Assembly (NCBI GenBank): GCA_963724925.1
Contig: CAVRXF010000020.1
Span: forward strand, 68,816 to 132,815
Length of the DNA stretch: 64,000 nucleotides
Source: an uncultured Actinomycetota bacterium
GTDB taxonomy: Bacteria; Actinomycetota; Actinomycetes; Actinomycetales; Dermatophilaceae
Direction of reading: 5' to 3'
In this document: positions 40,966 through 64,000 of the stretch, piece after piece
Numbering within the stretch: the stretch's first letter is position 1
Layout of the letters: each line of letters begins with the position of its first letter
The notes under the pieces: model-generated
Told to the model about the DNA's origin: nothing
The model's database searches: none
The model's input: the letters and a program-made list of their open reading frames with translations, nothing else
Program-made: the position numbers and the translations under genes

Positions 40966-42360
<1,395 letters not shown>

Positions 42361-45219: not shown

Positions 45220-45233
45220 CCTACACTGGGACC

Positions 45234-45546: not shown

Positions 45547-45876
45547 GTCGCTCCGACACCCGCCGGCTGGCCGACATGCTCATGGCCGCCGACGAAATCA
45601 ACAACATCACCGCGCGAGGGCGCACCGCGTTCGACGCCGACGTTGCCCTGCGCCGCGCGGTGGAACGGTGCCTGGAGATCGTCGGTGAGGCAGGCAAAAG
45701 CAGTGTCCGACGAGGTACGAGCCCAGCATCCGGACGTTCCCTGGACGTCGATGGCGAGGATCCGCGATCGCCTCAGCCACCACTACCATCGCATCGACCC
45801 CGATCAGTTGTGGACTGTCGCAACGACCGACATTCCCGCACTTGTCGATCAACTGCGACGCATGCAGGCCAGCTGA
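45543..45876 (+). pseudogene. HEPN (DUF86) toxin, +1 frameshift in an A4 run
   Basis: ...AVERCLEIVGEAGK lies in one frame. AVSDEVRAQHPDVPWTSMARIRDRLSHHYHRID, which carries the Rx4H motif, lies in the +1 frame. The break is at AAAA 45696-45699. Confidence 0.8.
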
Positions 45877-46419
45877 GCCCGACCTACGCCGACAACCGGC
45901 TCGACCGGCGAAAGCTGCTTCCGATTCTGCCGATGAGCGCGCGTCCTTCCCGCCCAGTAGGACGCACAGCACAGCGTTGAGGCACTGAGATTAGGCCCCG
46001 GGCCGGGGAGCATGCCCGACTTGCGGCTGGAGGCAGTCCGCGTCCCCATGGCCCCAGGATCCTCGGCTTCTCCGAGCGTGGGCCAAGAGCACCACAATCG
46101 ACGGTGGCACTGGTCCAGGTCACTACCTGCAGCGACACTCTGGAGAACTCGGTCGTGTCAGGCCCTCGCTCCCATCCGCTGGCTGGCGGGCGAGCGTCAA
46201 CGTCTGTGGCAGCCCCCTGGCGTTAGACGGCGAACTTGGCTCCGCACACGAGCCGACCATCCTCACCGCTGATGAGCGAGCGCCGGTGCGGACGGCCAAC
46301 GTAGGCGGCGGCGCCCTGGCAGGCTCTCCTGCCGGCGGGGCTCATCGTTCGAAGTCGATGCTGTTGACTGTGCCTGTATGAGGTCGCACGCTGGTGCCCT
46401 CGTCTGGGCGGAGGGCTCC

Positions 46420-46986
46420 ATGGGCAAGTTGATCTACGCCGCCAACATCTCGCTCGACGGCTTCCTCGAGGACGAGACGGGTTCGTTCGACTGGTCCGTG
46501 CCGGACGAGGGCGTGCACGCGTTCTGGAACGAGCACGAGCGGCACATCGGCACGTCGCTCTACGGGCGACGCATGTACGAGACGATGCGCGTGTGGGAGA
46601 GCGACGACTGGTTGACGAACGAGCCCCCGGTGGTCCGCGAGTATGCCGGGATCTGGCGTGACGCTGACAAGGTCGTCTACTCCACCTCACTGGCCGATGT
46701 GTCCACCGCGCGCACGAGGATCGAGCGGCAGTTCGAGCCCGAGGCGGTGCGACGGCTCAAGGAGACCTCCGGATCGGACCTGAGCATCGGAGGCGCGGGC
46801 ATCGCGGCCGAGGCCTTCCGGCACGGCCTGGTCGACGAGTGCGTGCTGCTGCTGTGCCCGGCCCTCGTCGGCGGCGGCAAGCCGGCGCTGCCTCGAGGCG
46901 TACGACTTGACCTCCAGCTGCTGGACCACCGTCGATTCGACAACGGCGTGGTCTACGTCCGCCATGCGGTCCGACACCCCGCCTGA
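46420..46986 (+). CDS. dihydrofolate reductase family protein (RibD C-terminal domain type)
   Basis: N-terminus reads MGKLIYAANISLDGF and a later motif reads IGGAGIAAEAFRHGLVDE. GGAGGG lies upstream of ATG 46420. Confidence 0.8.
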   Translation: MGKLIYAANISLDGFLEDETGSFDWSVPDEGVHAFWNEHERHIGTSLYGRRMYETMRVWESDDWLTNEPPVVREYAGIWRDADKVVYSTSLADVSTARTRIERQFEPEAVRRLKETSGSDLSIGGAGIAAEAFRHGLVDECVLLLCPALVGGGKPALPRGVRLDLQLLDHRRFDNGVVYVRHAVRHPA

Positions 46987-47165
46987 CACCCGCGCCGACA
47001 GTGCCATGAGCCCGAACTCCGGAGGTGCCCCCTTCCGCCGCCTGTCGACCTGCTGGCCTGCGGCTGCGGGCTGTGGCTGCAGGGGTCGGCGTGTGCGGCG
47101 GTGCGCATTGGCGTGGCGGTGTACGAGCACAGCAGGCTGAAGGAGCACCCGGGTAGCATTCGGCG

Positions 47166-47711
47166 GTGCGGATCGTTGTCTGCGGTACTCATGCCAGTGG
47201 CAAGAGCACCCTGGTGTCCGATTTCGCGTTGGCGCATCCGCGGTTCGAGGTGCTGCCGGATCCGTTTGACCTGGTCGATGTGCTCGACCCTGGCTCGCCA
47301 GCCTCGTTCCGTGAGCAGCTCGTCGTGGCCGCGCAGCGGTTGATCGCGTTGCCGTCAGGAGTCGACGTGATCGCCGAGCGCGGTCCGCTGGACTTCCTTG
47401 CCTATCTGGAAGCCCTGGTGACGTTGGGACGGGTCACGGTGGCCAGGGGGGTCAGCCAGGACCTGCGGATGATGACGGCGGCAGCGATGGTGCACGTTGA
47501 TCTGTTGGTTGTGCTGCCGCTGGCGGGCGTACCGGATGTCTGGGTCCCGGATGTGGAGGATCCTCGGTTGCGTACCGCGATGGATCAGCACCTGCTCGAG
47601 CTATGCGACGACGACGAACTGCTGGGCGCGGTCGCCGGCGTCGTCGAGCTGGTCGGATCGCCCGAGGCGCGGCTGGCCTCCCTGACGGCGGCTGTCGACA
47701 CTCCGAACTGA
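47166..47711 (+). CDS. P-loop NTPase (AAA_28-like ATP-binding protein)
   Basis: Walker A is CGTHASGKST, at the extreme N-terminus. The start codon is GTG. Confidence 0.65.
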   Translation: MRIVVCGTHASGKSTLVSDFALAHPRFEVLPDPFDLVDVLDPGSPASFREQLVVAAQRLIALPSGVDVIAERGPLDFLAYLEALVTLGRVTVARGVSQDLRMMTAAAMVHVDLLVVLPLAGVPDVWVPDVEDPRLRTAMDQHLLELCDDDELLGAVAGVVELVGSPEARLASLTAAVDTPN

Positions 47712-48018
47712 CCAGTAGGCGGGGCCCCTAGACTAGCTCCTCGCCGGGATGTTCCGGATGGGTGACCCAGCAGTGCCTTCGTCGGCGGGGTGGAGCTGGC
47801 CGCGTAGTGGGGCCCGTGGACACCGGCCGGTCCTTCAGAGGTACTCCACCCAGCGGCGGCCCAGGTCCTGCAGCCATCAACCCAGTGTAGAACACGTGTC
47901 CTAATGATGCTTTCGACTTCTTGGGCCTAGGCGAATCCCTGTCGCGGCTGTCACAGAACCCGCCGTCGGAGCACCTTTTTCGGATGACGTGCACAACCGC
48001 GCACTTTGGGGAGTTCTC

Positions 48019-48550
48019 GTGAACGTGTTGACCGCGGCCTGGATCGGAGCCGCCCGCCCCCACCGGCCCGACGTCGGCGCCGCCGGGCGGTGCGCCCGGT
48101 GCGGATTTGTCGACCAGCTGGTGGCTACCAACGCGGTGGTGTTCCAAACTCTTCACCGCGTTCGACGGGTGGACCGCTCCTGCCGGCGCCGGGCGGTTGC
48201 CGGATCTGCTCGTGGGCGTTCAGCACCGCCGCGCCGCGCCTGCACTTGCCCCTGCCGTAGGCGCGTTCTTCCTCACCCTCGCGTACCCCTCGCGGTATCC
48301 CTGCTGGTACTGCTGCAGGTGCGCGCCCCCAGCTGGTAGCGCACCGGGACGAGGTCCTTCGACGACGTCCTCAGCGTCCGCCCCGATGCCGCCAACGCGG
48401 GATCACCTCTCTGGGGCTGCCATCTGCTCCTGCTTCAGCGCCGTGGTCCGCGTCCCCCATCGCGACCTGCTCACCTTGGACAACCCGGGTGATTACACGT
48501 TTGGCCCGGCGCGCGATCAGAGCCAGCTCAGCCGTTTGAACACCAAGTAG
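48019..48550 (+). pseudogene. decayed gene of unknown function with CxxC zinc-ribbon-like N-terminus (several +1 frame breaks)
   Basis: Plausible peptide segments continue across successive +1 frames: ...GRCARCGFVDQLVATNAVV, then SKLFTAFDGWTAPAGAGR, then CRICSWAFSTAAPRLHL. The 3' end overlaps the corA stop. Confidence 0.3.
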
Positions 48551-49563
48551 AGCGCAGCCGACGCGAGCAGCATCAGGACCAACGCGAAGGGGTAGCCGAA
48601 GTCCCAGTGCAGTTCGGGCATGTGGTCGAAGTTCATGCCGTATACGGTGCCAACGAGGGTGGGGGCGAAGAAGATCGCCGCCCACGCGGAGATCCTCTTG
48701 ATCTCTTCGTTCTGCGTGTAGCTGGCGCGGGTGAGTTGCCTGACCTCCTCATTCTGCGCCTGCCCCACCAGCATGGCGTGCAGGGTCAGGACGGTCTGGT
48801 AGAACTCGATCACCCCCTGCAGGTACTCCTTTTGACCGTCGGCCACGCTGCGTACTCGGTCGAACTGGTCGGCCAGGTCGGCCACCAGCCGCTGCCCGTC
48901 GGGTGAGATCCGGGCCAAGGTGGTCATCCGCCCGTAGATCGCCGCGCTCAGCGCGCCCATGGTGCGCACGGCGAGCAGCCCGTGGCGGGCTCGGAACAGT
49001 TCATTGATGAATTCTTCGGGATCGTCGATGTGTCCGCCAGTGACGCGTTGCTCGAGCTGCCACACGTCACTGGTCACTGTCTCCACATAGTCCTCCTGGT
49101 GGCGGGCCAGGGCCGACACGATCGCGTAGGACAGCTCGAACGGGGTGGTGGGTGTCAATCGCCCGGCCTGGATCCGTCGGAGCACCGCGCCAGTTTCACG
49201 CAGGGCCACCTCCGGGTCGACCGCCGGGTTGAGCGGTCCGTGCACTGTCACCAAGTAATGCTTCCCGACGAACTGGTCGAGCTCGATGTAGTGCACATGG
49301 CCACGCTTCCCCGGTTCGGGGGCGTGCAGGACGAAGAACACGTGATCTGGGTAGGCGTGCACCTTGGGCACCCGGTTGCGCTCGATGCAGTCCTGTACCG
49401 CCGTGGGGTGGAAGGCGAACACCTCCGACAGCACCCGGGTGGCCTCCTCATCACACTGGGGGATGTCCACCCAGACCAAACCATCCCCGCGGTCCAGCAA
49501 CGCCGCCAGCTCCTGCACCGGACGCTGCTCAACCCCCTCATTGGTGATCAGGCGAACGTCCAC
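48517..49563 (-). CDS. corA: magnesium/cobalt transporter CorA
   Basis: Contains YGMNF (GMN motif) followed by two C-terminal TM helices. Confidence 0.92.
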   Translation of the reverse strand: MDVRLITNEGVEQRPVQELAALLDRGDGLVWVDIPQCDEEATRVLSEVFAFHPTAVQDCIERNRVPKVHAYPDHVFFVLHAPEPGKRGHVHYIELDQFVGKHYLVTVHGPLNPAVDPEVALRETGAVLRRIQAGRLTPTTPFELSYAIVSALARHQEDYVETVTSDVWQLEQRVTGGHIDDPEEFINELFRARHGLLAVRTMGALSAAIYGRMTTLARISPDGQRLVADLADQFDRVRSVADGQKEYLQGVIEFYQTVLTLHAMLVGQAQNEEVRQLTRASYTQNEEIKRISAWAAIFFAPTLVGTVYGMNFDHMPELHWDFGYPFALVLMLLASAALYLVFKRLSWL

Positions 49564-49671
49564 AACGCCACTCCCTTCGGTAGTCCCGCCGGGGCCAACG
49601 ACCCGGCATGACCGCTCCCGGGGAAACGGGTCGGTCAGCAGCCGCCGAGCTGGCCAGCCACAGACATGGTG

Positions 49672-51615
49672 TCAAGACAGAGCCTCATCTAGATTCTCGA
49701 TTCGCGATCCCATGATGACAGTCCTCTCGCGTGGGAGGCCGAAGTACTCCGCCGCGTCCGCGGTGATTCGGGAGGTGGCGACGAAGAGCCGCTTGCGCCA
49801 GCGGATCATGCCGGGTGCGTCGCCCACGCGCAGGTCGATGGTGGAAAGGAAGTAGGACACCTGGTCGGGGTCTAGAGAAGCCTGCAAAGGCATGCGTGCG
49901 GAGGCCAGGCGGAGCACGCTAGGGACGTTGGGCTCTTGCATGTACCCGAACCGGGCGCTGATGTGGGTGATCCCGTCATCCTCGTAGCGCAGATCGTCGA
50001 TCCTGATGCGGTCGGCTGCTGCAAGATGAGGGACCGGCAGCGTCTCGATCGAGAGGATCACGACCTGTTCGTGAAGGATGTGGCTGTGCTCCACGATGGC
50101 GCGCATCGCCAGCGGGGTCGTGCTCTTGCCGCGGTTCAGGAACACCGCCGTGCCGGGGACGCGTGGCAGCGGGGGCCGCAGGTCGTGCAGTTCGTCGACG
50201 AAGCCCTGCAGAGGCCCCTCGTCGTGCTCGCGTTGCGTTGTGACCAGCTCGCGGCCGCGCTGCCATGTGGTGAGCACCGTGAACACGGTGACCCCGATCA
50301 GCAGCGGGAGCCAGGCGCCGTGGGTGAGCTTTGTCAAGTTCGCGGTCAGGAAGAGCAGATCGACGATGAGGAACGCGGCAGCGCCGATCAGCACCAGCCA
50401 CAGCGGTTTGCCCCACTGGTGACGCACCACGTGGAAGAACAGCAGCGTGGTGATCGTGATGGTGCCGGTGACCGCCATCCCGAAGGCGAACGCAAGCGCG
50501 ACCGAGGTCTGGAAGGTGAATACGAGGGTGAGCACCGAGACCATGAGCGCCCAGTTGATCCACGGGACGTAGACCTGGCCGATGGTCTGCTCGGAGGTGT
50601 GGTTGATGCGCAGCCGCGGCAGGTAGCCGATTTGGACGGCCTGGTGGGAGACCGAGAAGGCGCCGGTGATGACGGCCTGGGAGGCGATGATCGTGGCCGC
50701 GGTCGCCAGCAGCACCATCGGTAGGCGCCCCCAGGCGGGGACCAGCAGGAAGAACGGGCTGCTAATCGTCTCGTTAGGGTCCCCGAGCACGAGCGCGCCC
50801 TGGCCTAGGTAGCTGAGAATGCAGGCGGGGAACACCAGGAGCAGCCATGCGCGGGTGATCGCGGTGCGGCCGAAGTGGCCCATGTCGGCGTATAGGGCCT
50901 CGGCCCCGGTGACGGCCAACACGACCGCAGCAAGAGCAAAGAACGCGATCGAGAAGTGGCCGATGAGGAAGCCCAGTGCGTACGTCGGGGAGAGCGCCTT
51001 GAGGATCTGCGGGTGTCCGGCGATTCCGCCGAGGCCGCAGGCCCCGATCGCCGCGAACCACACGATCATGACCGGGCCAAACAGACGGCCCACCCGCGCC
51101 GTGCCAACCCGCTGCGCCGCGAACAGCACGATGATGATCACCGCGGTGATCGGCACGATGAGGTGCTCCAGCGACGGCTGCACGACCTTGAGACCCTCGA
51201 CCGCCGAGAGCACCGAGATCGCCGGGGTGATAATGCTGTCGCCGAAGAACAGGCTTGCGCCGAAGATCCCGAGCGCCGCCAACGTGGCCTTGGTCCGCCC
51301 CCCTCCGGGGCTTCCTTGGCGTCTGATCAGGGTGATGAGCGCGAGAATGCCGCCCTCCCCGTCGTTGTCGGCGCGCATCACCAGCAGCACGTACTTGACC
51401 GTGACGATGATCGTCACCGACCAGAAGATCAGCGAGATGATGCCATAGACACTCTCAGTCGAAGCGGCCACTGGGTGCGGGTCCTCGGGGTTGAAGACCG
51501 TTTGGATCGTGTAGATGGGGCTCGTGCCGATGTCACCGAAGACGACGCCCAATGCACCAACCGTTAGCGCTGCTCGCGCAGGTGTGCGCGTGCGGCCGGC
51601 GGTGTCGGCACTCAT
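49672..51615 (-). CDS. kup: KUP/HAK/KT potassium transporter
   Basis: N-terminal signature reads LGVVFGDIGTSPIYT, in a long polytopic protein. Start set to ATG 51615. Confidence 0.93.
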   Translation of the reverse strand: MSADTAGRTRTPARAALTVGALGVVFGDIGTSPIYTIQTVFNPEDPHPVAASTESVYGIISLIFWSVTIIVTVKYVLLVMRADNDGEGGILALITLIRRQGSPGGGRTKATLAALGIFGASLFFGDSIITPAISVLSAVEGLKVVQPSLEHLIVPITAVIIIVLFAAQRVGTARVGRLFGPVMIVWFAAIGACGLGGIAGHPQILKALSPTYALGFLIGHFSIAFFALAAVVLAVTGAEALYADMGHFGRTAITRAWLLLVFPACILSYLGQGALVLGDPNETISSPFFLLVPAWGRLPMVLLATAATIIASQAVITGAFSVSHQAVQIGYLPRLRINHTSEQTIGQVYVPWINWALMVSVLTLVFTFQTSVALAFAFGMAVTGTITITTLLFFHVVRHQWGKPLWLVLIGAAAFLIVDLLFLTANLTKLTHGAWLPLLIGVTVFTVLTTWQRGRELVTTQREHDEGPLQGFVDELHDLRPPLPRVPGTAVFLNRGKSTTPLAMRAIVEHSHILHEQVVILSIETLPVPHLAAADRIRIDDLRYEDDGITHISARFGYMQEPNVPSVLRLASARMPLQASLDPDQVSYFLSTIDLRVGDAPGMIRWRKRLFVATSRITADAAEYFGLPRERTVIMGSRIENLDEALS

Positions 51616-51875
51616 CTGCGCGAATCTCCTAGACCTGGGGGCGACTGCGGGCATCGTATTTCTTGAGAGCTGGGGGTCGCGATTTCACCTGCCAGCCGCG
51701 ACCACGAAGGTGCTGTCCCAACCCTGCGGTTTACCCGCCGGCGTCGACCTAGACGTGCACCGCAGCCCCAACCGCATCCTGGCGATCTGCGGCCTTCCCG
51801 AGGAGGCCTCGACAGTGCCCCCGGCCTCTACCTCACAGTCCCGCCTCATCAAACCAGCCGCCTTGGGTCCTGGGT

Positions 51876-51924
51876 GTTAAGGGGTTGTGAGGATTTGCGG
51901 GGTGGGAGTTAGGGCTTCGTTAGG
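51876..51924 (+). promoter_or_regulatory. phased GTTA(A/G)G hexamer direct repeats upstream of the kdp operon (candidate KdpE/OmpR-type binding sites)
   Basis: GTTAAG-N5-GTGAGG lies at 51876-51892 and GTTAGG-N5-GTTAGG at 51908-51924. Hexamer starts are 11 bp apart within each pair. Another GTTAAG lies at 51950. Confidence 0.4.
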
Positions 51925-51999
51925 ACCGCTGCCGTGGGCGGTTGCGTTGGTTAAGACTGCTCGGGTGGTCGAAAGCGCCACCTGATGATTGGAGTCTGC

Positions 52000-52083
52000 A
52001 TGGACGACTTGGTCTTCGTGGCCCTCACCGTCGCCTTCTTCGCGGTGGCGGCGCTGCTGGTGAGGGGGGTCGAGCGTCTGTGA
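52000..52083 (+). CDS. 27-aa hydrophobic peptide ORF translationally coupled to kdpF
   Basis: The ORF ATG...TGA encodes [27 protein letters not shown]. Its TGA overlaps the kdpF GTG start (GTGA). Confidence 0.4.
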   Translation: MDDLVFVALTVAFFAVAALLVRGVERL

Positions 52084-52169
52084 GCATCGCGAACGTCGCC
52101 GGGCTGGCCCTGTCTGTCCTGCTGATCGGCTACCTGCTGGTGGCCCTGCTGTTCCCGGAGCGATTCTGA
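52080..52169 (+). CDS. kdpF: K+-transporting ATPase subunit F
   Basis: 29-aa single-TM peptide [29 protein letters not shown] lying directly before kdpA. Confidence 0.85.
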
Positions 52170-52170
52170 G

Positions 52171-53829
52171 ATGTCAGACACGACCGCCGGCCTTTTGCAG
52201 GTCGGTCTGCTGATCGCCGCTCTTGCGGCGTGCTACAAGCCCCTGGGCGCGTACATGGCCCGGGTGTACACCAGCGAGCATGACACCCGCGCCGAACGGG
52301 TCATCTACCGGGTGATGGGCGTGGATCCCACGGCCGATCAGCGTTGGCCGGTCTATGCACGTTCCCTGCTGGTGTTCTCGGGGGTGTGCGTGCTGGGGTT
52401 GTACGCGCTGCTGCGCTTGCAACCGAACCTGCCGCTGAGTCTTGGATTCCCCGGTGTCGCCCCCGATCAGGCGTTCAACACCGCCGCCTCGTTCACGACC
52501 AACACGAACTGGCAGTCCTACTCCGGCGAGTCGACGATGGGGCATCTGGCCCAGATGGCCGGGCTGGCCGTGCAGAACTTCGTCTCGGCTGCGGTCGGGA
52601 TGGCCGTCGCGGTGGCCCTGGTGCGCGGGTTCGCACGTTCGCGCACCGATCGGGTCGGCAACTTCTGGGTGGACCTGATCCGGGGTAGCCTGCGCATCCT
52701 GCTGCCGATCGCCGTGGTCGCCACGGTGGCGCTGATCGCGCTGGGCGCGGTGCAGAACTTCTCCTCCGGCACCGAGGTCACCACCTTGGTTGGCCAGTCG
52801 CAGACCATCACCGGCGGGCCGGTCGCCTCGCAAGAGGCCATCAAGGAGCTGGGGACCAACGGCGGCGGGTTCTACAACGCGAACTCGGCGCACCCGTTCG
52901 AGAACCCCAACGCCGTCTCGAACCTGCTGGAGATCTTCCTGCTGCTGCTCATCCCGGTGTCGTTGACGTACACGTTCGGGCGGATGGTCAAGGACCAGCG
53001 GCAGGGATACGCGATCCTGGCGGCGATGGGCACCTTGTGGGCCCTGATCGTGACCGGCATCTCGATTCTGGAGGCCGCCCATCCAGGCACGGCGCTGCAG
53101 CTGGCCGGCGCCTCGATGGAAGGCAAGGAAACCCGCTTCGGGGAGGCCGCCTCCGCGTTGTTCGCGGCCTCCACCACCGGGACCTCCACCGGCGCGGTCA
53201 ACTCGTTCCACTCCTCGTTCACCGCGCTCGGTGGCGGGCTGGCCATCTTTCACATGGGTCTGGGTGAGGTTTCCCCCGGCGGGGTTGGCACTGGGCTGTA
53301 CGGGATGCTGGTGATGGCCATCGTGACGGTGTTCGTCGCCGGGCTGATGGTCGGGCGCACTCCGGAGTTTCTGCGTAAGAAGATCACCTCCCGCGAGATC
53401 AAGCTGGTCTCCCTGTACATCCTGACGATGCCGGTGATCGTGCTCGGCGCGACCGGTCTGGCGATGGCCCTGCCGGGCCCGAAGGACTCGATCCTCAACC
53501 CCGGCCCACACGGCCTGTCCGAAGTGCTGTACGCGTTCATGTCCGGGACCAACAACAACGGATCCGCCTTCGCCGGGCTGAACGCGAACACCGGCTTCTA
53601 CAACACCGCGATCGGGCTGGCCATGCTCGCCGGCCGGTTCGTGCCGATCGTGCTGGCCCTGGCGTTGGCCGGGTCACTGGCCAGCCAGCAGCCGGTGCCG
53701 GCGACCGCGGGCACCCTGCCGACGCACCGCCCACTGTTCGTGGGGATGCTGATCGGGGTGGTGCTCATCGTGGCCGGGCTGACGTTCTTTCCCGCGCTGG
53801 CGCTCGGACCGATGGCGGAGGGTCTATAG
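52171..53829 (+). CDS. kdpA: K+-transporting ATPase subunit A
   Basis: 552-aa polytopic protein with typical KdpA sequence ([17 protein letters not shown]). Confidence 0.95.
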
Positions 53830-55954
53830 ATGCCCACCCTGACCGACCCCACCCCCCAGTTCCCGCACTCCGACAAAGGACCCCTAGCCGTGAGCAGCGA
53901 ACCCCAGGCCCCGACGCGAGTGCAGGCGGGCCTGCTCGACCCGAAGATGCTGCTGTTTTCGGTGCCCGCGGCGGTGCGCAAGCTGGACCCGCGCATCATG
54001 GTCCGCAGCCCGGTCATGTTCGTGGTCGAAGTCGGCGCGGCGCTGTCCACGGTGCTGGCGATCACCGACCCGAGCCTGTTCGCCTGGTCGGTCGTCGGGT
54101 GGCTGTGGCTCACGGTCATCTTCGCCAACCTCGCCGAGGCCGTCGCCGAGGGCCGCGGCAAGGCCCAGGCCGCCACCCTGCGCCGGGCCAAGACCGAGAC
54201 CATGGCCCGGCGGCTGCGCGCCGATGGCACCGAGGAGAGCGTGCCCGGACCCGAGCTGCGCCTGGGCGACCGTGTGGTGGTGCAGGCCGGGGGGATCATC
54301 CCCGGTGACGGCGATGTCGTCGAGGGTGTGGCCAGCGTCGATGAGTCGGCGATCACCGGTGAGTCCGCACCCGGTGATCCGCGAGTCCGGCGGGGACCGC
54401 AGCTCGGTCACCGGCGGCACCAAGGTGCTGTCCGACCGGATCGTGGTGGCCATCACCGCCAAGCCGGGCGAAAGCTTCATCGACCGGATGATCGCGCTGG
54501 TGGAGGGCGCCTCCCGGCAGAAGACACCCAACGAGATCGCGCTGAACATCCTGCTGGCCAGCCTGACCATCGTCTTCCTGATGGCGACACTGACGTTGCA
54601 GCCGTTCGCCATGTACTCCGGCGCCGAGCAGTCCCTGATCGTGCTGGTGGCACTGTTGGTGTGCCTCATCCCCACCACCATCGGGGCGCTGCTGTCGGCC
54701 ATCGGCATCGCGGGCATGGACCGGCTCGTGCAGCACAACGTGCTGGCCATGTCCGGCCGGGCGGTCGAGGCCGCCGGTGACGTGAACACGTTGTTGTTGG
54801 ACAAGACCGGCACCATCACGTTGGGAAACCGGCAGGCGGCCCAGTTCCTGGCCGTGGACGGCGTTGATTTGGCCGTGCTGGCTGACGCCGCGCAGTTGGC
54901 AAGCCTGGCCGACGAGACCCCCGAAGGACGCTCCATCGTGGTACTGGCCAAGACCGCGCACGGACTTCGGGAACGTCACGCCGGTGAGCTCAGTGCCGCC
55001 CACTTCGTGGCCTTCACCGCGCAGACGCGAATGAGCGGGGTGGACCTGGACGGGGAACGGCAGATCCGCAAGGGCGCGGCGGCGGCGGTCATGAAGTGGG
55101 TGCGTGACCACGGCGGACACCCCACCGAGGAGGTCGGGGCGATTGTCGATGCCATCTCCACCAGCGGCGGCACCCCGCTGGTGGTCGCCGAGAAACGCCA
55201 GGGCCACGCCGCTCACACACTCGGGGTGGTCAACCTCAAAGACATCGTCAAGGCGGGGATGCGGGAGCGGTTCGCGGAGATGCGCCGGATGGGAATCCGC
55301 ACCGTGATGATCACCGGAGACAATCCACTCACCGCCAAAGCCATCGCCGAGGAGGCCGGCGTTGACGACTTCCTGGCCGAGGCCATCCCCGAAGACAAGA
55401 TGGCATTGATCAAGGCCGAGCAGCAAGGCGGGCGGCTGGTGGCCATGACCGGGGATGGCACCAATGACGCGCCGGCTCTGGCCCAGGCCGACGTCGGGGT
55501 CGCCATGAACACCGGAACGTCGGCCGCCAAGGAGGCCGGCAACATGGTCGACCTTGACTCCAACCCGACCAAGCTCATCGAGATCGTCGAGATCGGCAAG
55601 CAGCTGCTGATCACCCGCGGGTCGCTGACGACGTTCTCCATCGCCAACGACATCGCCAAGTACTTCGCCATCATCCCGGCCATGTTCGCTGGCGTGTTCG
55701 CCGGCCTGGGCACGCTGAACATCATGCGCCTGTCCTCGCCGCAGTCCGCGATCCTGTCGGCGGTCATCTTCAACGCGCTGATCATCATCGGGCTCATCCC
55801 GCTGGCGCTGCGCGGGGTGCAGTACGTGCCGGCCTCGGCCGGGGCGATGCTGCGACGCAACCTGCTCATCTACGGTCTCGGCGGCATCATCGCCCCCTTC
55901 ATCGGGATCAAGCTCATCGACCTGCTGGTATCGCAGATCCCCGGCATCGGCTAA
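53830..55954 (+). pseudogene. kdpB: K+-transporting ATPase subunit B (P-type ATPase), one +1 frameshift as given
   Basis: The N-terminal part, up to [11 protein letters not shown], is in one frame. [16 protein letters not shown]...DKTGTIT...[11 protein letters not shown] is in the +1 frame. The break is at GG 54373-54374. Confidence 0.9.
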
Positions 55955-55978
55955 ACCAAAGACAAGGAAGACCATTCG

Positions 55979-56635
55979 GTGGCAACCCAGACCTCCTCGA
56001 CCCTGCGAGTGTTCGCGGCCGCGGTGCGCTCGCTGCTCGTGCTCACCCTCATCGTCGGTGTGGCCTACCCGTTGGCCATGACCGCGGTTGCGCAGCTGCT
56101 GTTCAACTCCAACGCCAACGGCTCGCTGGTGTCGCGAGACGACACAACCGTGGGCTCTGTGCTCATCGGGCAAGGGTTCACCCGTGCGGTCCTGGAAAAC
56201 GGGCAACCAAAGACCGACGCGGACGGCAACCCGGTGCTGGAAGCGGACCCGGCCTACTTCCAGAGCCGGCCATCGGCGGCCGGTGCCGGCTATGACCCGC
56301 TGTCCACGTCCGCCTCCAACCTCGGCCCGGAGAACCCCGAGCTGATCGCCGCCATCCAGCAGCGTGCGGACACCGCGGCTGCCCTCGACGGTGTGCCGCC
56401 CCAGATGGTGGCCCCGGACGCGCTGCAGGCCAGCGGCTCAGGGCTCGATCCGCACATCAGCCCCGGGTATGCCACCGAGCAGGTTGCGCGGGTGGCCCGC
56501 GAGCGCGGGCTTGACCCGGGCACGGTCAGCGCGTTGGTGGCCGAGCACACCCAGCCGCGTCTTTTGGGGTTCCTGGGCGAGCCTCGGGTCAACGTCCTTG
56601 AGCTGAACATGGCCTTGGATGGCATCCCCCGATGA
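55979..56635 (+). CDS. kdpC: K+-transporting ATPase subunit C
   Basis: N-terminal TM segment followed by KdpC sequence (GSGLDPHISP). The start codon is GTG. Confidence 0.92.
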   Translation: MATQTSSTLRVFAAAVRSLLVLTLIVGVAYPLAMTAVAQLLFNSNANGSLVSRDDTTVGSVLIGQGFTRAVLENGQPKTDADGNPVLEADPAYFQSRPSAAGAGYDPLSTSASNLGPENPELIAAIQQRADTAAALDGVPPQMVAPDALQASGSGLDPHISPGYATEQVARVARERGLDPGTVSALVAEHTQPRLLGFLGEPRVNVLELNMALDGIPR

Positions 56636-56682
56636 GCGCGTGGCCCGCACCGCGACGACCTCAGTGAGGAGGGACCTGGCAC

Positions 56683-59313
56683 ATGGGACGCGGTAGTTTG
56701 CGGATCTACCTGGGTGCTGCCCCTGGGGTCGGCAAGACCTACGCCATGCTCGATGAGGGTCGCCGGCGCGCCCGACGCGGCACCGACGTGGTCGTGGGCT
56801 TCGTTGAGACCTATGCACGCCAGCACACGGCGGCCCTGCTTGAGGGGCTGGAGATTGTTCCCCGCAAGCAGGTCTCCTACCGCGGTGCCAGCTTCACCGA
56901 GATGGACCTCGACGCGGTGCTGGCGCGCCACCCCGCGGTTGCCCTGGTCGACGAGCTGGCCCACACCAACGTCCCGGGGTCTGGAAACGAGAAGCGGTGG
57001 CAGGACATCCAGATGCTGCTGGCCGCTGGGATCGACGTGATCTCCACCGTGAACATCCAGCATCTGGAGTCGTTCAACGACGTGGTCGAGAAGATCACCG
57101 GTGTGCCGCAGCGTGAGCGGGTGCCCGATGCGTTCGTGCGGGCCGCCGATCAGGTCGAGCTGGTCGACATGGCCCCCGAAGCGCTGCGTCGTCGGATGGC
57201 GCACGGCAACATCTACCCCGCCGAGAAGGTCAACGCCGCACTGGGCAACTACTTCCGGGTCGGCAACCTCACCGCCCTGCGTGAGCTGGCCCTGCTGTGG
57301 ACCGCCGACAAGGTCGAGGAAGCCCTGCAGCTCTACCGGGAAGAGAACGACATCGGGCAGACCTGGGAGACGCGCGAACGCGTCGTGGTCGCCCTCAGCG
57401 GTGGACCCGAAGGCGAGACCCTGATCCGCCGGGCGGCCCGGGTGGCGGCCCGCTCGGCCGGCGGCGACCTGCTCGCCGTGCACGTCACCCGCTCCGACGG
57501 GCTCATCGGCGCCAGCCCAGCCGACCTGGCCACGCAGAGACGGCTCGTGGAGACCTTGGGCGGCAGCTACCACCAGATCATCGGCGACGACGTGCCCGTT
57601 GCGTTGCTCGAGTTCGCCCGCGCCGAAAACGCCACCCAGCTGGTGCTGGGCGTCAGCCGCCGCTCCTGGCTGGCTGGGCTGCTCAGCCGCACGGGCATCG
57701 GCGCCGAGATCATCCGCGGTTCCGGCGACATCGACGTGCACCTGGTGACCCACTCGCAGGTGGGAAAGGGCCGCGGCCTGCCGCGATCGCACGGCAGCCT
57801 GCCACGCCGGCGACGACTGCAGGGATTCGCGCTGGCGCTGCTGCTGCCCCCGCTGCTGACCCTGGCGTTGATTCCCGCGCGGGAGCAGCTCAATCTCGTC
57901 AGCGACGTGCTGCTGTTGCAGCTGGCCGTCGTCGTGGTGGCCCTGGTGGGGGGCTTCCTGCCGGCGATGACCGCCGCGCTGTTCGGCTCCCTGCTGTTGA
58001 ACTACTACTTCGTGCCGCCCCTGCACACCCTGACCATTCAGGACAGCGAACAACGCGCTAGCCATCGGTGTGTTCATCGTTGTCGCGGCCCTGGTGAGCT
58101 CGGTGGTGGATCTTGCCGCTCGACGCACCCGGCAGGCGGCCCGTGCCGCCGCCGAGGCAGAGACGTTGGGCACCCTGGCCGGAAGCGTGCTCCGCGGAGA
58201 GACCGCGCTGCCCGCGTTGCTGGAACGGGTCCGCGAGGCCTTCGGCCTCACCTCGGTCACCCTGCTGGAGAAGATCCACAGCGCCGACCGCCCACCCACG
58301 ACCGCCATACGCAGTTCCATGGATCCGTGGGTCGTTAGGGCCGCCGCCGGTGAGGGCCGCTGCGAGCGGCCCGAGGACGCGGACACTCAGGTTCCTGCCG
58401 GCGAATCGCTCATGCTCGGCCTGTGTGGCCGGCCGCTGCACGCCGAGGACCAGCGAGTCCTGGCTGCCTTCGCCGCCCACGCGGCCGTCATCCTGGACCG
58501 CTCGCGCCTGAGCGAGGCCGCAGCGGCCGCCGGCCCGTTGGCCGCGGCCGACAGGATGCGCACAGCGCTGCTGGCGGCCGTCGGACACGACCTGCGCAGC
58601 CCGCTGGCCTCGGCGAAGGCGGCCGTCACCAGCCTGCGTAGCGATGACGTGGCATGGACGCCGGGCGAAAAGCGCGAGCTGTTGATGACCGCGGACGAGT
58701 CGTTGGACCGCCTGGCCCGGTTGGTGGACAACCTGCTGGACATGAGCCGACTGCGCGCCGACGCGCTGGCCATCCTCAGTCGCCCGGTTGCCCTCGAGGA
58801 TGTGGTTGCCCTGGCACTTGACCACCTCGGCTCGGACAGCGGCAGCGTCGTGGTCGACGTTCCTGACGACCTGCCCATGGTGCAGGCCGATGCCGGCCTG
58901 CTCGAGCGGGTCATCGCCAACCTGGTGGGAAACGCCATTCGATACAGCCCCCCCAACCGGCCCCCCATCATCACCGGCAGCGGCCTGGGCAACCGGGTGG
59001 AGCTGCGGGTGATCGACCATGGCGCCGGCATCCCATCCACCGACCTGGACCGGGTCTTCACCCCCTTCCAGCGCCTCGGCGACACCGACAACACCACCGG
59101 AATCGGGCTTGGGCTGGCCCTATCCCGGGGGCTGACCGAGGCCATGGGCGGCTCTTTGCAGCCGGAGGAAACCCCGGGGGGTGGCCTGACCATGGTCGTC
59201 TCGTTGCCCGCCGCAGCCCCGGATCCCACCGCGTCAGGAACGGGCGCCGAGCCAGGCTATCGGGAGCAAGCCACCCAGGACCCGTCCCTGTCCAGCGACC
59301 GGCCCGGCACGTG

Positions 59314-59314
<1 letters not shown>
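56683..59314 (+). pseudogene. kdpD: sensor histidine kinase KdpD, one +1 frameshift as given
   Basis: The KdpD N-terminal P-loop domain (GAAPGVGKTY), the Usp domain and the first DUF4118 TM helices are in one frame. ALAIGVFIVVAALV...HDLRSPL...GIGLGLA (HisKA/HATPase) is in the +1 frame. The break is near 58050-58051. Confidence 0.9.
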
Positions 59315-60101
<787 letters not shown>

Positions 60102-60109
60102 ACGGGGCT

Positions 60110-60126
60110 GTCAGGATGTTGTTAGA
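60110..60126 (+). promoter_or_regulatory. GTCAGG-N5-GTTAGA direct repeat upstream of the DUF4118 gene (same box type as the kdp promoter)
   Basis: GTCAGGatgttGTTAGAACCCTT closely resembles GTTAAGaagtcGTTAGGACCCTT at 63627. Confidence 0.3.
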
Positions 60127-60226
60127 ACCCTTCGTGTTCGCCTCGCCCGGCTGTTTGGATGAATCCTGTGAACGTTGACCCCTACTACTATCGGGTCCGC
60201 CCCCTGTTCATCATCGCCGCGGCATC

Positions 60227-60970
60227 GTGCCGATACTGCTGTGCTGGGCGCTGGGGGCCTTCAAGGACAGCGTCACCAACGCCACCGCGGTGCTGGTTCT
60301 CGTGCTCTTTGTCGTGGCCGTGGCTGCCATGGGGGACCGGCTCGCAGGACTAATGGCGGCGCTGTCCAGCGCCGCCGCGTTCGACTTCTATCTCACCGAG
60401 CCCTACCAGCGATTCGACATCTACGACCCCAACGACGTCGAAGCCGCTGTGCTGCTCGTACTTGTCGGAGTGGGCGTCACCGAACTGGCCCTGTGGGGCC
60501 GGCGCCAACAGGGCCGGGCCAGTCGCCGAGCCGGGTACCTTGAGGGCGTCCACCAAACCGCCGAAATCATCGGCGATCGCCAATCCACACCGGAACAGAT
60601 CATCCATCGGGTCGCCGAGCAGATCCGGCAGGTGCTTGACCTTGACCGATGCCACTTCGTCCCGGATACCCAACCCAGCCCACAGGCACCCCGAATCGAC
60701 CACGACGGCTCCCTCAGTCGAGGCGGCCAAACCCTCAACATCGAACAAGACGGGCTGCCAACCCACGAGGAGATAGGCCTCATCGTCAGCGCCGCAGGAG
60801 TCACCCGCGGCCACTACCTGCTCACCGCAGCGACCCGCACCCGTCGACCAACACTGGAACAGCGGAAAGTCGCCGTGCTTCTCGCTGATCAGGTCGGTGC
60901 CTTCCTGGCCGATCACGGGTCGCCCACCGACGCCCCACCTCGGGAGGACACCCGATCGCCAAGTCCCTGA
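60227..60970 (+). CDS. DUF4118 domain protein (KdpD-type membrane domain without a kinase core)
   Basis: NATAVLVLVLFVVAVAAMGDRLAGLMAALSSAAAFDFYLTEPYQRFDI... matches the KdpD TM-domain pattern and is followed by a small soluble domain. The N-terminus is uncertain; possible additional coding lies in another frame from 60159. Confidence 0.7.
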   Translation: MPILLCWALGAFKDSVTNATAVLVLVLFVVAVAAMGDRLAGLMAALSSAAAFDFYLTEPYQRFDIYDPNDVEAAVLLVLVGVGVTELALWGRRQQGRASRRAGYLEGVHQTAEIIGDRQSTPEQIIHRVAEQIRQVLDLDRCHFVPDTQPSPQAPRIDHDGSLSRGGQTLNIEQDGLPTHEEIGLIVSAAGVTRGHYLLTAATRTRRPTLEQRKVAVLLADQVGAFLADHGSPTDAPPREDTRSPSP

Positions 60971-61384
60971 ACAAGCCTGGCCCCCGTCGCCGACAGCAGC
61001 TCCCCGACGCCGATTCCTCAACCCGCCACACCCGGCCCACCGCCGGACTACACAACGGAGAGTCAACCCCGGGGCTCGAGACCGCCCCCGTATCAGCCCC
61101 GACTCGTCCTGCGTCTTCGAGCCACTCGTGGTCGTCCTCGGTTGCGAAGTTCTGGGTCCCCGTAGAGGTCGGTTCCCATGACACCCAAGGTGAACAGAAC
61201 AGAGATCATCCCGAACCAGCAGCGGCTGCACCGTGCGATCAACAGCCTGCTCAACAGGCCGTTCCAGAACATTCCAACCCACGCGACGCCGTCGCGAGTA
61301 CGACCGACCGAAGACGCAAAGTTGAAAGCGCCCGCAAGCAGTCAGTCAACGGACGAGCCCCGGCGCACCACCGTGCTGCTCGAG

Positions 61385-61920
61385 GAGCATCGCCCCGTTC
61401 GCTGTCGAGCTTTCCCTACGCGGGCGGGGATGTGGACCTGGATGATCTGGTCTCGTTCCTGACCGACCCGGTGGGTCATTACTTGCGGCTCGGCTGGGTC
61501 TGCGGCTGCCCGATGAGCCCGAGGGTCGTAGCGACGGAATCCCGCTGGAGCTGACCGCCTGAACGAGTGGGCGGTCGACGACCGGGTTCTGCGCGCGGCC
61601 CTGGCCGGCCAAGACATCCGGCAGTGTGAGGCCGCTGAACGTCGGCGAGGCGAGCTGCCCCCCGCCGGCCTCGGCGAGGTGGCGTTGCAAGCCATCACTG
61701 CGACCATCAGGTTCCTCACGACCGTGGCGCCTGGCAGACCCATGGGTTCCGTTTGCCGGGGGCTCCCGCAGTCACACGCGGCCTTGAGGTGGACGCGGCA
61801 CCGCCCAACGGAAGCCACTAGTTGGGGGCGATTGGGCCGCTGACCTGGGCAAACGTCGGCGCGTCTGCCCGGCGGTGGGGTCGAATGACGAGATCCTGGT
61901 CCAGGACCCTTATGTCACAA
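61385..61920 (+). pseudogene. recC: relic of the 3' part of recC (RecBCD gamma subunit), multiple frame breaks and an in-frame stop
   Basis: Segments in successive frames read VDLDDLVSFLTDPVGHYLR, then ARLGLRLPDEPEGRSDGIPLELTA, then LNEWAVDDRVLRAALAGQDIRQCEAAERRRGELPPAGLGEVAL. They follow the RecC C-terminal pattern as I remember it. The N-terminal roughly 900 codons are absent. Confidence 0.45.
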
Positions 61921-61935
61921 GGGAAGTGAGGCCTG

Positions 61936-63273
61936 ATGCTGGTTACCACCAATGGGCAGCAGACGTTGTGGGAGACGATCCTGCCGCCGGGCTACGAGAA
62001 TCTTCCGGCGGAGCTGGCGGCCGTCGACGCGGTGCTTGAGGACCCAGTGTTCTTCGAGCCGTACCGGGCGCACTTCTCTGCGGTGATGGGCCGCCCGTCG
62101 ATACCGATCGAGACCTACCTGCGGATGATGTTCCTCAAGCACCGCTATGGGCTGGGTTACGAGAGCCTGTGCCGGGAGGTGGCCGACTCGATCTGCTGGT
62201 CGCGGTTTTGCCGGATCCCGCTGGGGACACGGGTGCCGCACCCGTCGACGCTGGGCAAGCTGACCGCCCGCTGCGGCGCGAGCGTGATCGAGCAGCTGAA
62301 CGCGGCGCTGTTGGCCAAGGCGGCAGCGGCCAAGGTGGTCAAGACCGACAAGGTCCGCGCGGACACCACCGTGGTCCCGGCGAACGTGGCCTACCCGACT
62401 GACTCCGGGCTGCTGGTCCGCGCGATCGCGGTCGGGCGGCGGGCGCGGTCGATCTTTGCGCACCTGAAGCTGCGCAAATGAGCAGGCCAAGGCCAGCGTG
62501 CTGGGGATCACCGGCGAGCTGGCCGATCTGGCCGAGGCCAGCGTCATCGAGGCCACCGGGGTGCTGGTCAATGCCCGCCGCCATGTGGCCCGCCGCGGTG
62601 CGGGCACCTCGGGGCGGCTGGCCTGGGCGATCGATGAGCTGCAGGTGATGTTGGGCCGGGCCACTCAGGTGGTGGCCCAGACCCGCACCTGGCTGGCCGG
62701 GGCGATCCCGGCCTCGGCGACCCGGCTGGTGTCCCTTCACGACGGGATGCCCGCCCGATCGTCGTGCACCGGGGCAACCCGGCGGATGCTCCGCTGCTCG
62801 CCCCGGCCATCGGGCGGATCAAGACGCTGCTCGGTCGAGCACCACACGTGGTCACCGCCGACCACGGCTACGGCGAGGCTAAGGTGGACCAGGAACTGAC
62901 CGACCTGGGCGTGACCACCGTGGTCATTCCCCGCAAGGGCAAGCCCTCCACGGCCCGCCGCGAGCACGAGCACCGCCGCGGTTTCCGCCGCCTGGTCAAG
63001 TGGCGCACCGGCAGCGAGGGACGCATCTGCTACCCCAAGTGTCGCTACGGCTTCGACCGCACCCGCCTCGATGACCTTACCGGCACCCAGACCTGGTGCG
63101 GCCCGGGCGTGCTGGCGCACAACAGCGTCAAGATCGCCCACCTGATCCAGCAGAGGCGCCCGGCAACCCAAACTCGGCCCAGCCGTCGTCGATCAGCCCA
63201 ACCACCAGCCCCCAGCGCCGCCGCGACCGGACCACCGCCGGACCCACTGCCCTCCTCCAGGACCTCTGCATAA
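61936..63273 (+). mobile_element. IS5-family transposase gene (DUF772 N-terminal + DDE domain), broken into three frames
   Basis: The N-terminal part reads ...GRPSIPIETYLRMMFLKHRYGLGYESLCREVADSICWSRFCRIP. The middle part reads VLGITGELADLAEASV. The DDE part reads VVHRGNPADAPLLAPAIGRIK...VTADHGYGEAKVDQEL...FRRLVKWRTGSEGRI. The stop at 62479-62481 and a further shift near 62745 interrupt it. The element ends are not resolved. Confidence 0.8.
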
Positions 63274-63626
63274 CCTCCTCCCGCGCTCCCGGCCGACCCG
63301 GCACACCTGCCCGGCCCTCCCAAGACGGGAGGGGACCGGGACAGGGGCCGGAAACGCCTGCTGGGCAGATCGCGGAAGGGTCGTACTCGATCCTGCCGAC
63401 CTGTGTCCCACCCCTACCCAGAGCCATTCTTCGGGGCGAAGTAGCTAAAGCTCAGCAAGCAGTTCGATGGCGTCTTTGCGGCTTCGAGAAGAGCGTGCGC
63501 GACCTCACCTGGAGCCATTCGGCGTTCCTGTCGGCCGTCCGGGCACGCAAACCGCCGAGGGCGTGATGAGCCGACGCCGGCCGCGCCGGGACCGATGCCT
63601 TTCTTGGTGGCTCGCCTCACGTTCGC

Positions 63627-63643
63627 GTTAAGAAGTCGTTAGG
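63627..63643 (+). promoter_or_regulatory. GTTAAG-N5-GTTAGG direct repeat upstream of the APC permease gene
   Basis: GTTAAGaagtcGTTAGGACCC has the same hexamers and the same 11-bp phasing as the box at 51908-51924. Confidence 0.35.
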
Positions 63644-63692
63644 ACCCTTGGTCAGTGCGTCCGGTGGGGCCTTCGATGGTCTGGTGTCCTCG

Positions 63693-64000
63693 ATGCCCCC
63701 AATCGTCACCGACCAGGCCCCGAGCTTCCTCGCGCGGCCCGACGCGATCCCCGCGGGCATCGAAGCCCCAGAGAGCCTGGCCTACCGCCTCAAATGCGCC
63801 CTGCTCGGGCCGCCCCTGACGACGACCCGGCTGCAGCATGAGCGGCTGAGCAAGAAGCTCGCCTTGGGTGTGCTCTCGAGCGACTGCATCTCCTCATCGG
63901 CATACGGTTCCGAGGAGATCCTGCTCATCCTGGTGCCGCTGTTCGGTCTGGCGGCATACGGGCTGCTGCTGCCGCTGACCGGTGTCGTGCTGATGGTCCT
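63693..64000 (+). CDS. APC-superfamily permease, N-terminal part (3' end outside the window)
   Basis: The open frame to the window edge reads ...YRLKCALLGPPLTTTRLQHERLSKKLALGVLSSDCISSSAYGSEEILLILVP, an N-terminus typical of APC permeases. The start is uncertain: ATG 63693, GTG 63684 or TTG 63648. Confidence 0.6.
   Translation, partial: MPPIVTDQAPSFLARPDAIPAGIEAPESLAYRLKCALLGPPLTTTRLQHERLSKKLALGVLSSDCISSSAYGSEEILLILVPLFGLAAYGLLLPLTGVVLMV

Follow-up and report, generated by a model that had tools for sequence, protein, structure and literature searches.

Compositionally atypical genomic islands are classically described in terms of the dinucleotide distance δ* of Karlin and of the amelioration concept of Lawrence and Ochman, and kdp operons are among the genes known to be carried by mobile DNA, as exemplified by the extra kdp operon of the staphylococcal cassette chromosome SCCmec type II and by the haloarchaeal megaplasmids. 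In the Neisseriaceae, genomic islands and integrative and conjugative elements (ICEs) have been detected by their atypical distribution of the DNA uptake sequence, or DUS (Hughes-Games et al. 2020, PMC7371117). The 64-kb stretch of DNA analyzed here, hereafter “the window” (GC content ~0.70), presents a comparable situation: the 8-mer CGGCATAC/GTATGCCG recurs about once per kb in its left ~46 kb, taken as the host-type reference, and is absent from a tract (46,649–63,897) that carries the cation transport genes corA, kup and kdpFABCDE. We consider it likely, on the basis of the 8-mer, oligonucleotide composition and synteny, that ~47.0–61.0 kb represents DNA acquired from a different high-GC actinobacterial background and lodged in a hypervariable interval downstream of glyS.

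As with the DUS-poor islands of the Neisseriaceae, a short, lineage-specific and strand-symmetric oligomer saturates the chromosome and the blocks devoid of it are acquired DNA. In Neisseria, however, the oligomer serves in the uptake of DNA by competent cells, and the islands found were ICEs endowed with integrases and att sites (PMC7371117), whereas here an actinobacterium is the host, no function is known for the oligomer and the block carries neither integration nor conjugation genes. With the classical atypical islands the tract shares an odd di- and tetranucleotide signature, an accessory cargo, the location in a variable interval and the presence of insertion sequence (IS) debris at one edge, but it differs from them in having no tRNA target, integrase or direct repeats and in its nearly host-like GC content and codon usage, so that GC-based island finders would probably miss it. 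Finally, as in the known mobile kdp systems, a complete kdpFABC–kdpDE set moves as a block, here 97% identical in two contexts; unlike those examples, this is an actinobacterial version with a stand-alone DUF4118 gene and a divergent kup, and no carrier element has been recognized.

The window contains 46 exact copies of the 8-mer, both strands being counted, compared to 1.24 ± 1.17 expected from dinucleotide-preserving shuffles, which corresponds to a ~37-fold over-representation. Forty-four of these copies are found at 632–46,648 (0.94/kb), none is present in the 17.25 kb between 46,649 and 63,897, where 16.3 are expected at the left-hand rate, and the last two, at 63,898 and 63,952, are located inside the final 110 bp. 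The Poisson probability of finding no copy in 17.25 kb is 8.6e-8 and the scan-corrected probability of a gap of this length among 46 uniform points is 2.5e-5; for the 14.5-kb core of the tract, 0 copies are found vs 13.7 expected. Copies in the left 46.6 kb are separated by at most 2,841 bp, and ~3.7 kb is the maximum in ~55 kb from three motif-bearing relatives (loci L006, L008 and L166). The pattern that the original prediction had read from the sequence (one copy per kb to the left of 46.6 kb, none in the tract, two at the right end) is thus borne out by the counts of 44, 0 and 2, and the relatives offer no comparable motif-free stretch. Markov models predict 0.15–0.34 copies in the tract, which is therefore at chance level. 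The same holds for the one-mismatch variants (43 vs 38 expected on the left and 11 vs 9.3 in the tract), indicating that the tract contains no eroded copies of the motif and that on the left the motif has no degenerate halo. The two variants previously singled out as the nearest ones, at 56466 and 58306, do exist (TGGCATAC at 56,467 on the minus strand and CGCCATAC at 58,303 on the plus strand) but are only two of the 11. Furthermore, the sites at which the 8-mer is synonymously possible are occupied in 25 of 53 cases in the host genes and in 0 of 7 in the genes of the tract.

The composition of the DNA changes with the motif. Measured in 5-kb windows against the rest of the left region, the tetranucleotide correlation to the host is 0.91 ± 0.02 on the left (minimum 0.865) and 0.78 ± 0.02 in the tract, and the dinucleotide δ* is 39 ± 11 and 94 ± 16, respectively (Mann–Whitney p = 0.009 for the compositional difference). 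In particular, TCGA occurs at 3.5 times its expectation in the host, which is also rich in CGAC, CGAG and GACG, vs 1.9 in the tract, which is depleted in TCGA, CGAC and CGAG. A 3rd-order Markov log-likelihood ratio (LLR), trained on 1–42 kb vs 52–60 kb, is host-like at 42–47 kb, changes sign at ~47.0 kb and is non-host at 47–52 kb, all outside the training sequence, and returns toward host values at 61.0–61.5 kb. The 47.0–51.8 kb and 51.8–61.0 kb pieces both display a correlation of 0.79 to the host and of 0.88 to each other. On the other hand, the GC content falls only from 0.699 on the left to 0.674 in the tract; the tract is foreign in its oligonucleotide signature but hardly in GC or codon bias. 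The expectation that it had not yet taken on the host signature is accordingly correct for the oligomer signature and for the motif, and not for codon usage and the GC content of third codon positions (GC3), which are almost host-like. The near-host GC3 and codon usage, combined with the non-host signature, would fit a donor that is another high-GC actinobacterium.

The foreign core is ~47.0–61.0 kb (47,002–61,024). It begins at ~47.0 kb and not at 46,649, since the RibD_C gene located immediately before it is host-like and carries a motif copy; the cargo found beyond the conserved genes is therefore of two kinds, that at 44.5–47.0 kb being host-like, with the motif copy at 46,641, and that at 47.0–61.0 kb being non-host. 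The segment 61.0–63.6 kb, a scar zone with a RecC fragment and a transposase remnant, is compositionally ambiguous and probably belongs with the foreign block. The borders originally proposed, 46,649 and 63,897, are thus those of the motif-free tract and not those of the foreign core. That the odd composition derives from the function of the genes was considered and rejected: the kdp operons of two other genomes (L082 and L083) have a tetranucleotide correlation to the host signature of 0.90–0.91, better than that of the kdp genes of the window, so that kdp coding content is not the cause.

The left 46 kb consist of conserved actinobacterial core genes (hflX, holA, lepA, hemW, hrcA, dnaJ, phoH, ybeY, leuA, recO, uppS and glyS). 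The glycyl-tRNA synthetase (GlyRS) has its best matches in the Intrasporangiaceae/Dermatophilaceae (Phycicoccus with 84%, then Ornithinibacter, Knoellia, Lapillicoccus and Pedococcus), the top named matches being Lapillicoccus, Terrabacter, Pedococcus, Intrasporangium and similar genera, and the host lineage is a Lapillicoccus-like soil actinobacterium of this group. The closest relative found is L166 (NCBI assembly contig, GCA_044867305.1), whose GlyRS is 94% identical in amino acids and which is 85.4% identical at the nucleotide level over positions 38,162–44,519 of the window. The GlyRS with the highest bit score, that of a “Lapillicoccus sp.” (P0241), was discarded as a close relative, being only ~80% identical and an internally duplicated 582-residue call; in its gene (L165, 998–2,746) an internal duplication of ~120 residues, probably an assembly artefact, had inflated the score.

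The gene order upstream of glyS is conserved across the Intrasporangiaceae-type loci compared (L001–L008), whereas that downstream is not. L166 is collinear with the window through glyS, a small open reading frame (ORF) and two alpha/beta-hydrolase genes, up to 44,519; beyond this point come DUF2252, Arr-ms and a P450 gene and then dus, OmdA and dgt, motif copies being present in all of them, and the genes corA, kup and kdp are found neither in this interval, through dus–dgt, nor in the more distant genera compared. Since L165 also has dus–OmdA–dgt a few kb downstream of glyS, and since the cargo in between differs in L165, L166 and the window, the glyS–dus interval qualifies as a hypervariable spot. 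Throughout this interval (L001, L005, L006, L008, L165, L166 and window 42.4–64 kb) the cargo is mostly different, only L001 and L008 sharing a short stretch.

The strongest single result is that the kdp module apparently exists, almost unchanged, in a non-host background. Indeed, the block 51,790–61,024, though not 47.0–51.8 kb, is 97.35% identical in nucleotides over 9,245 bp to locus L081 (ENA ERZ25039554 contig_16051, from a metagenome), where its left neighbour is a second kdp operon disrupted by IS110 and its right neighbour a transposase gene of the IS3 type. The 8-mer does not occur in the whole 19.3-kb L081 locus, and the probability that its 10 kb of non-shared sequence would be motif-free at the host rate is ~7e-5 (arithmetic from the counts). 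Moreover, the tetranucleotide correlation of both tract halves to the L081 flanks is 0.87–0.88. The second operon of L081 (1–7,300) is more divergent (64–79% nucleotide identity), has the opposite orientation and has its kdpB interrupted by an IS110-family transposase gene.

These data bear directly on the possibility that the tract is native and long resident, the motif being kept out of it either because selection acts against rare codons in transporter genes or because the installing process does not operate locally. The 8-mer does force codons that are rare at this GC content (TAT, GCA and ATA), and the GC3 and codon usage of the tract are near the host values; nevertheless, the non-host tetra- and dinucleotide signature, which extends to the non-kdp genes and to the intergenic DNA, would be left unexplained, the tract is absent at this locus in L166 and a 97% copy of its kdp module exists in a foreign context. 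Furthermore, comparable genes do carry the 8-mer in motif-bearing genomes, namely kup in L101, the kdp operon in L168 and, in the window itself, an AcrB-like membrane gene of the host. Long residence is consequently judged to be highly improbable, and the reading of the tract as foreign to this chromosome, already proposed in the original prediction, is upheld by four independent lines of evidence: the motif at chance level, the non-host signature with switch points at ~47.0 and 61.0–61.5 kb (tetranucleotide correlation 0.78 vs 0.91), the divergence of L166 at 44,519 without corA, kup or kdp, and the L081 copy.

The features found between 38 and 64 kb, identified by Pfam, NCBIfam and tblastn with the intact genes of L082, are the following.

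38,162–44,519: last block syntenic with L166 by alignment, comprising znuA-like genes, glyS, o42296 and two alpha/beta hydrolase genes
44,835–45,205: nested inverted repeat from the repeat search, with 23-nucleotide perfect outer and 52-nucleotide imperfect inner arms
45,087–45,980, plus strand: MNT/HepT-type toxin–antitoxin frame, nucleotidyltransferase with a weak HepT match (Pfam), of host-like composition (LLR)
46,289–47,001, plus strand: RibD_C (DHFR-family) gene, Pfam E = 2.9e-18, LLR +25; left border, with the last left-side motif copy at 46,641
47,166–47,711, plus strand: P-loop NTPase gene, first of the foreign core; weak AAA_28 match, E = 1e-4, below the Pfam cut-off
48,517–49,563, minus strand: corA Mg2+/Co2+ channel gene, intact; Pfam CorA E = 2e-45, TIGR00383 E = 6.9e-41, the latter below its curated cut-off
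49,672–51,654, minus strand: kup K+ transporter gene, intact, 660 residues; K_trans E = 6e-176
51,790–61,024, plus strand: kdpF-to-DUF4118 module, starting from the kup–kdpF spacer; the block recurring in L081
52,080–52,169, plus strand: kdpF, by tblastn with L082 KdpF
52,171–53,829, plus strand: kdpA, intact, 552 residues; Pfam KdpA E = 7e-231
53,893–55,954, plus strand: kdpB, with a +1 frame break near 54,372 (Pfam, tblastn)
55,979–56,635, plus strand: kdpC, intact; Pfam KdpC E = 3e-64
56,683–59,314, plus strand: kdpD sensor kinase gene, split at 58,045 (Pfam, tblastn)
59,311–60,014, plus strand: kdpE response regulator gene, with insertions at 59,830 and 59,839 (Pfam, tblastn)
60,179–60,970, plus strand: stand-alone DUF4118 gene, similar to the KdpD membrane domain, frame intact; Pfam E = 1.4e-19
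61,412–61,745, plus strand: RecC C-terminal fragment, ~100 residues over three frames; the reconstructed peptide matches RecC_C with E = 5.9e-25 and TIGR01450 at positions 810–908
61,886–63,273, plus strand: degraded transposase gene, with DUF772 at 61,930–62,481 and DDE_Tnp_1 at 62,638–63,273 (Pfam)
63,690–64,000, plus strand: start of a membrane-protein ORF, where host-type DNA resumes, with the motif at 63,898 and 63,952

The gene content formerly assigned to the tract is hereby largely recovered, the P-loop NTPase being a weak match and corA, kup, kdpFABCDE, DUF4118, RecC_C and the split transposase being supported by Pfam, NCBIfam or tblastn; kdpF, A, B, C, D and E stand in operon order and constitute a KdpFABC–KdpDE gene set. 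Two labels call for comment. The transposase gene, called IS5, is indeed a broken DUF772/DDE_Tnp_1 gene, and its nearest annotated homologues are ISNCY/ISRjo3-like genes on actinobacterial plasmids, to which it is 70–73% identical in nucleotides with an internal gap; the final ORF, called an APC permease gene, has no match in Pfam or NCBIfam. The toxin–antitoxin module and the inverted repeat announced to the left of the tract are both present. The repeat begins ~300 bp past the end of the L166 synteny and lies directly upstream of the MNT/HepT frame, whose start it overlaps. The RecC fragment, corresponding to positions 3–100 of the 202 of the RecC_C profile, lies squeezed in after the kdp module and before the transposase remnant, which gives the impression of a recC gene destroyed by insertions.

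The RibD_C gene alone is 92.5% identical in nucleotides to L084 10,035–10,751, a motif-bearing locus with unrelated flanks, and the fact that this identity ends exactly with the gene indicates a junction at ~47,001. Relatives of its product with 85–97% identity are spread over many actinobacterial genera, and the gene behaves like a single-gene mobile unit. It was for this reason abandoned as a route to the empty site, being a widely scattered single-gene segment whose best match, L084, has an unrelated context.

As to the cargo of the foreign core, L082 and L083, whose kdp operons are more distant, have kup followed by kdpFABCDE in the opposite orientation, with a KdpA identity of 85–90%, and L082 also has a DUF4118 gene; however, the Kup adjacent to kdp in L082 is only 53% identical in amino acids to that of the window, vs 90% for KdpA. 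The closest relatives of the window Kup are 82% (a motif-free metagenome contig) and 72–74% identical, and none of them adjoins corA. Unlike those of GlyRS, the top named matches of KdpA are Angustibacter and Nocardioides; few matches bear names, and the 120 best include no Dermatophilaceae. The plasmid database yielded no close relative of the tract but only generic kdp similarity of ~75–80%. A cluster of RibD_C, a 181-residue ORF, DUF4118, kdp and CorA in L167 was examined as a second copy of the island and rejected, as beyond kdp it shares with the window only DUF4118 (48% amino acid identity) and a short weak corA match, its other proteins being unrelated.

The DUF4118 protein of the window is 63% identical in amino acids to its L082 homologue, in one frame, and weakly matches positions 423–556 of the NCBIfam KdpD profile. 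Stand-alone DUF4118 genes accompany kdp operons, either upstream or downstream, also in L081 (15,636–16,157), L082 (17,896–18,705), L167 (8,957–9,688) and L168 (8,517–9,284), and this recurrent pairing suggests a conserved accessory role in Kdp regulation.

Three features generally found in genomic islands, namely a departing composition, absence from the same locus in L166 and, for 51,790–61,024, occurrence in an unrelated context, are displayed by the tract. Viewed as one unit, it would be a single discrete mobile element (an ICE, an integrative island or a composite transposon) that brought in all 17 kb in one event and is now decaying. In favor of this view, the non-host signature is common to both halves, the right edge bears a transposase remnant and the L081 module is bracketed by IS110- and IS3-type genes. 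The scans of the window, however, revealed neither an integrase or relaxase gene nor any gene for conjugation or tRNA, and terminal repeats were likewise missing; in particular, no IS terminal inverted repeats were recognized. The tract is not built as a composite transposon, the lone IS remnant being a degraded transposase gene at the right edge only, and the IS genes flanking the L081 module belong to different families. L081 shares only 51,790–61,024, the corA–kup adjacency is unseen among the closest Kup relatives and the kup found beside kdp in L082 and L083 is of a different Kup lineage. Since only part of the tract recurs in L081 and the corA–kup adjacency is not seen elsewhere, the tract is a mosaic of at least three pieces, of which only 51,790–61,024 travels as a block, and not one recognizable element; arrival as a single element is accordingly deemed improbable, all the more so because its “decay” is confounded with assembly error.

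In fact, the frame breaks deserve a separate comment. kdpB, kdpD and kdpE shift frame relative to the intact L082 genes: kdpB contains an extra C that is also present in L081, kdpD an extra A at 58,045 that is found neither in L081 nor in L082, and kdpE two extra single bases (59,830 and 59,839) relative to L081. The same type of lesion occurs, however, in the core, where recO is broken twice (~36,286 and ~36,347) and uppS once (~36,846) by single-base insertions relative to five relatives, all within 1.6 kb; the recO-adjacent copy of uppS is essential in mycobacteria. All 7 frame breaks that can be polarized against relatives are single-base insertions, 19 small indels separate the window from L081 in 9.2 kb, and fragmented kdp genes are also present in L081 and L167, both contigs of the same ENA series. 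That most frame breaks fall in the tract is correct as a raw count, but not per testable kb, the rates being similar (3 in ~14 kb of core and 4 in ~11 kb of kdp genes). The occurrence of the same insertion type in recO and uppS makes assembly error likely rather than gene decay, and most of these breaks would be insertion errors of long-read assembly, an interpretation at least as likely as decay, so that the earlier notion of a partly decaying island is not sustained. As regards the integrity of KdpFABC–KdpDE, error and pseudogenization look alike in the case of the single-base insertions in kdpB, kdpD and kdpE, whereas under either reading genuine debris is represented by the truncated recC and by the transposase gene with its internal deletion.

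The quality of the assembly is also central to the possibility that the tract is a chimera, i.e., that ~14–17 kb of a co-occurring actinobacterium have been spliced into a Lapillicoccus-like chromosome contig. A KdpA identical to that of the window is recorded on a 187-kb NCBI/ENA contig, sister contigs (ENA ERZ250394xx–ERZ250395xx) carry close kdp relatives, the 97% copy of the module lies on another contig of the same ENA series and indel noise is evident in the assembly. Nevertheless, a chimera would require two switches, since two motif copies are found within 110 bp on the right vs ~0.02/kb by chance; the left switch, at ~47,001, is not located at a repeat and ends a gene-sized segment that is bounded also in L084, and the debris at the right edge (RecC fragment and transposase remnant) is typical of real insertion sites. 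Artificial splicing is, in our judgment, quite improbable.

Several points weigh against acquisition and have to be set beside the evidence given above. The window probably derives from a metagenome-assembled contig, an identical KdpA being recorded on the 187-kb NCBI/ENA contig. KdpA is conserved at 85–90% identity over many lineages, the motif-bearing L168 among them, and protein similarity therefore does not name the donor. Pfam detected no integrase or recombinase domain in the ORFs scanned at 42.9–64 kb, the window is free of tRNA and tmRNA genes, and 47.0 and 61–63.6 kb are not bracketed by direct repeats; no empty site, that is, no relative with RibD_C beside recC or the permease gene, was encountered. 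The GC3 of the tract genes (0.83–0.90) is host-like, and in synonymous codon usage these genes depart only marginally from the host (p = 0.058, with shifts from GTC to GTG and from CTC to CTG). Finally, the whole of 44.5–64 kb is non-syntenic with L166, including the host-like 44.5–47.0 kb, and this closest relative is only 85% identical in nucleotides, so that “recent” is to be understood relative to a species- or genus-level divergence.

According to the acquisition model, the block would have arrived, in a single step or in several, in the hypervariable interval that follows glyS, once the lineage had separated from its closest sampled relative. The host lineage would slowly build up CGGCATAC through point substitutions, in every reading frame and on either strand, to reach ~1 copy/kb, and the incoming block would have been resident too briefly to gain any copy, remaining a motif desert with a non-host tetranucleotide signature. 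Transfer was presumably into this genome, and probably took place by IS-associated or illegitimate recombination, with no integrase-borne element as vehicle. Kup is a constitutive low-affinity K+ system and KdpFABC a high-affinity, ATP-driven one under the control of KdpDE, and from its gene content the tract would provide an accessory K+/Mg2+ uptake capacity.

Concerning the time of entry, a comparison of the window with L166 (15% nucleotide divergence) at 10 8-mer sites revealed 4 that are shared, 1 that is present only in the window and 5 only in L166, and some sites are common to different genera. At orthologous positions the motif-less genomes are 1–2 substitutions away, e.g., CGGCGTAC or CGGCACAC, near-misses which imply that the 8-mer is installed by point substitution. 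Gain and loss of the 8-mer thus seem to run on the timescale of species-to-genus divergence, and 14 kb without a copy would imply a residence shorter than, or comparable to, the time elapsed since the split from L166-like relatives. The absence of the motif does not necessarily mean a very recent event; it is the 97% L081 copy that argues for recency.

The 8-mer itself occurs 23 times on one strand and 23 on the other, an equal split that rules out a polar signal of the Chi or FtsK-orienting polar sequence (KOPS) type. It is found in all six combinations of frame and orientation, the commonest being TAT-GCC (Tyr-Ala), GCA-TAC (Ala-Tyr) and GGC-ATA (Gly-Ile), and its copies are spaced more evenly than chance would place them (coefficient of variation 0.72). 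Its density per kb is 1.12 in L166, 0.85 in Lapillicoccus (L006), 0.84 in Pedococcus (L008), 0.56 in Knoellia (L005) and 0.23 in Phycicoccus (L001), and near zero in Ornithinibacter and most other actinobacterial loci fetched, an odd exception outside the Intrasporangiaceae subset being Bifidobacterium thermophilum (L075) with 0.33/kb (7 copies in 21 kb). These statistics, i.e., over-representation, equal use of both strands, location within genes, occurrence in all frames and confinement to one lineage, are those of DUS- or uptake signal sequence (USS)-type oligomers. We know of no uptake-sequence-like signal in this phylum, no competence genes are present in the window, and the literature search for the 8-mer returned only matches to Illumina adapters and nothing relevant that pairs it with the Intrasporangiaceae. 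That the 8-mer is an actively maintained self-marker of an Intrasporangiaceae clade and, independently, one of Bifidobacterium thermophilum, acting as an uptake-sequence-like or as a repair- or recombination-driven signal, is a conjecture that we hold to be rather unlikely.

Islands of this type are textbook knowledge, their detection by means of an oligomer is established and the cargo and its organization hold nothing unexpected. What the tract illustrates is that, even where GC content and codon usage barely differ, as in this high-GC actinobacterium, acquired DNA can be recognized by means of a lineage-specific oligomer, with a practical use in island finding and in contamination or chimera checks of soil metagenome-assembled genomes. 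In biological terms, with its kdp module 97% identical in two contexts, it records the movement of a set of K+/Mg2+ uptake genes among soil actinobacteria. The 8-mer with its uptake-sequence-like statistics, for which no explanation was found, is a more unusual object than the island, and the question raised by the tract is what creates and maintains it. Should the self-marker conjecture be true, the kdp/kup block would be the first marker-free island to have entered by a marker-blind route, and motif density could act as a residence-time clock for DNA acquired by these genomes.

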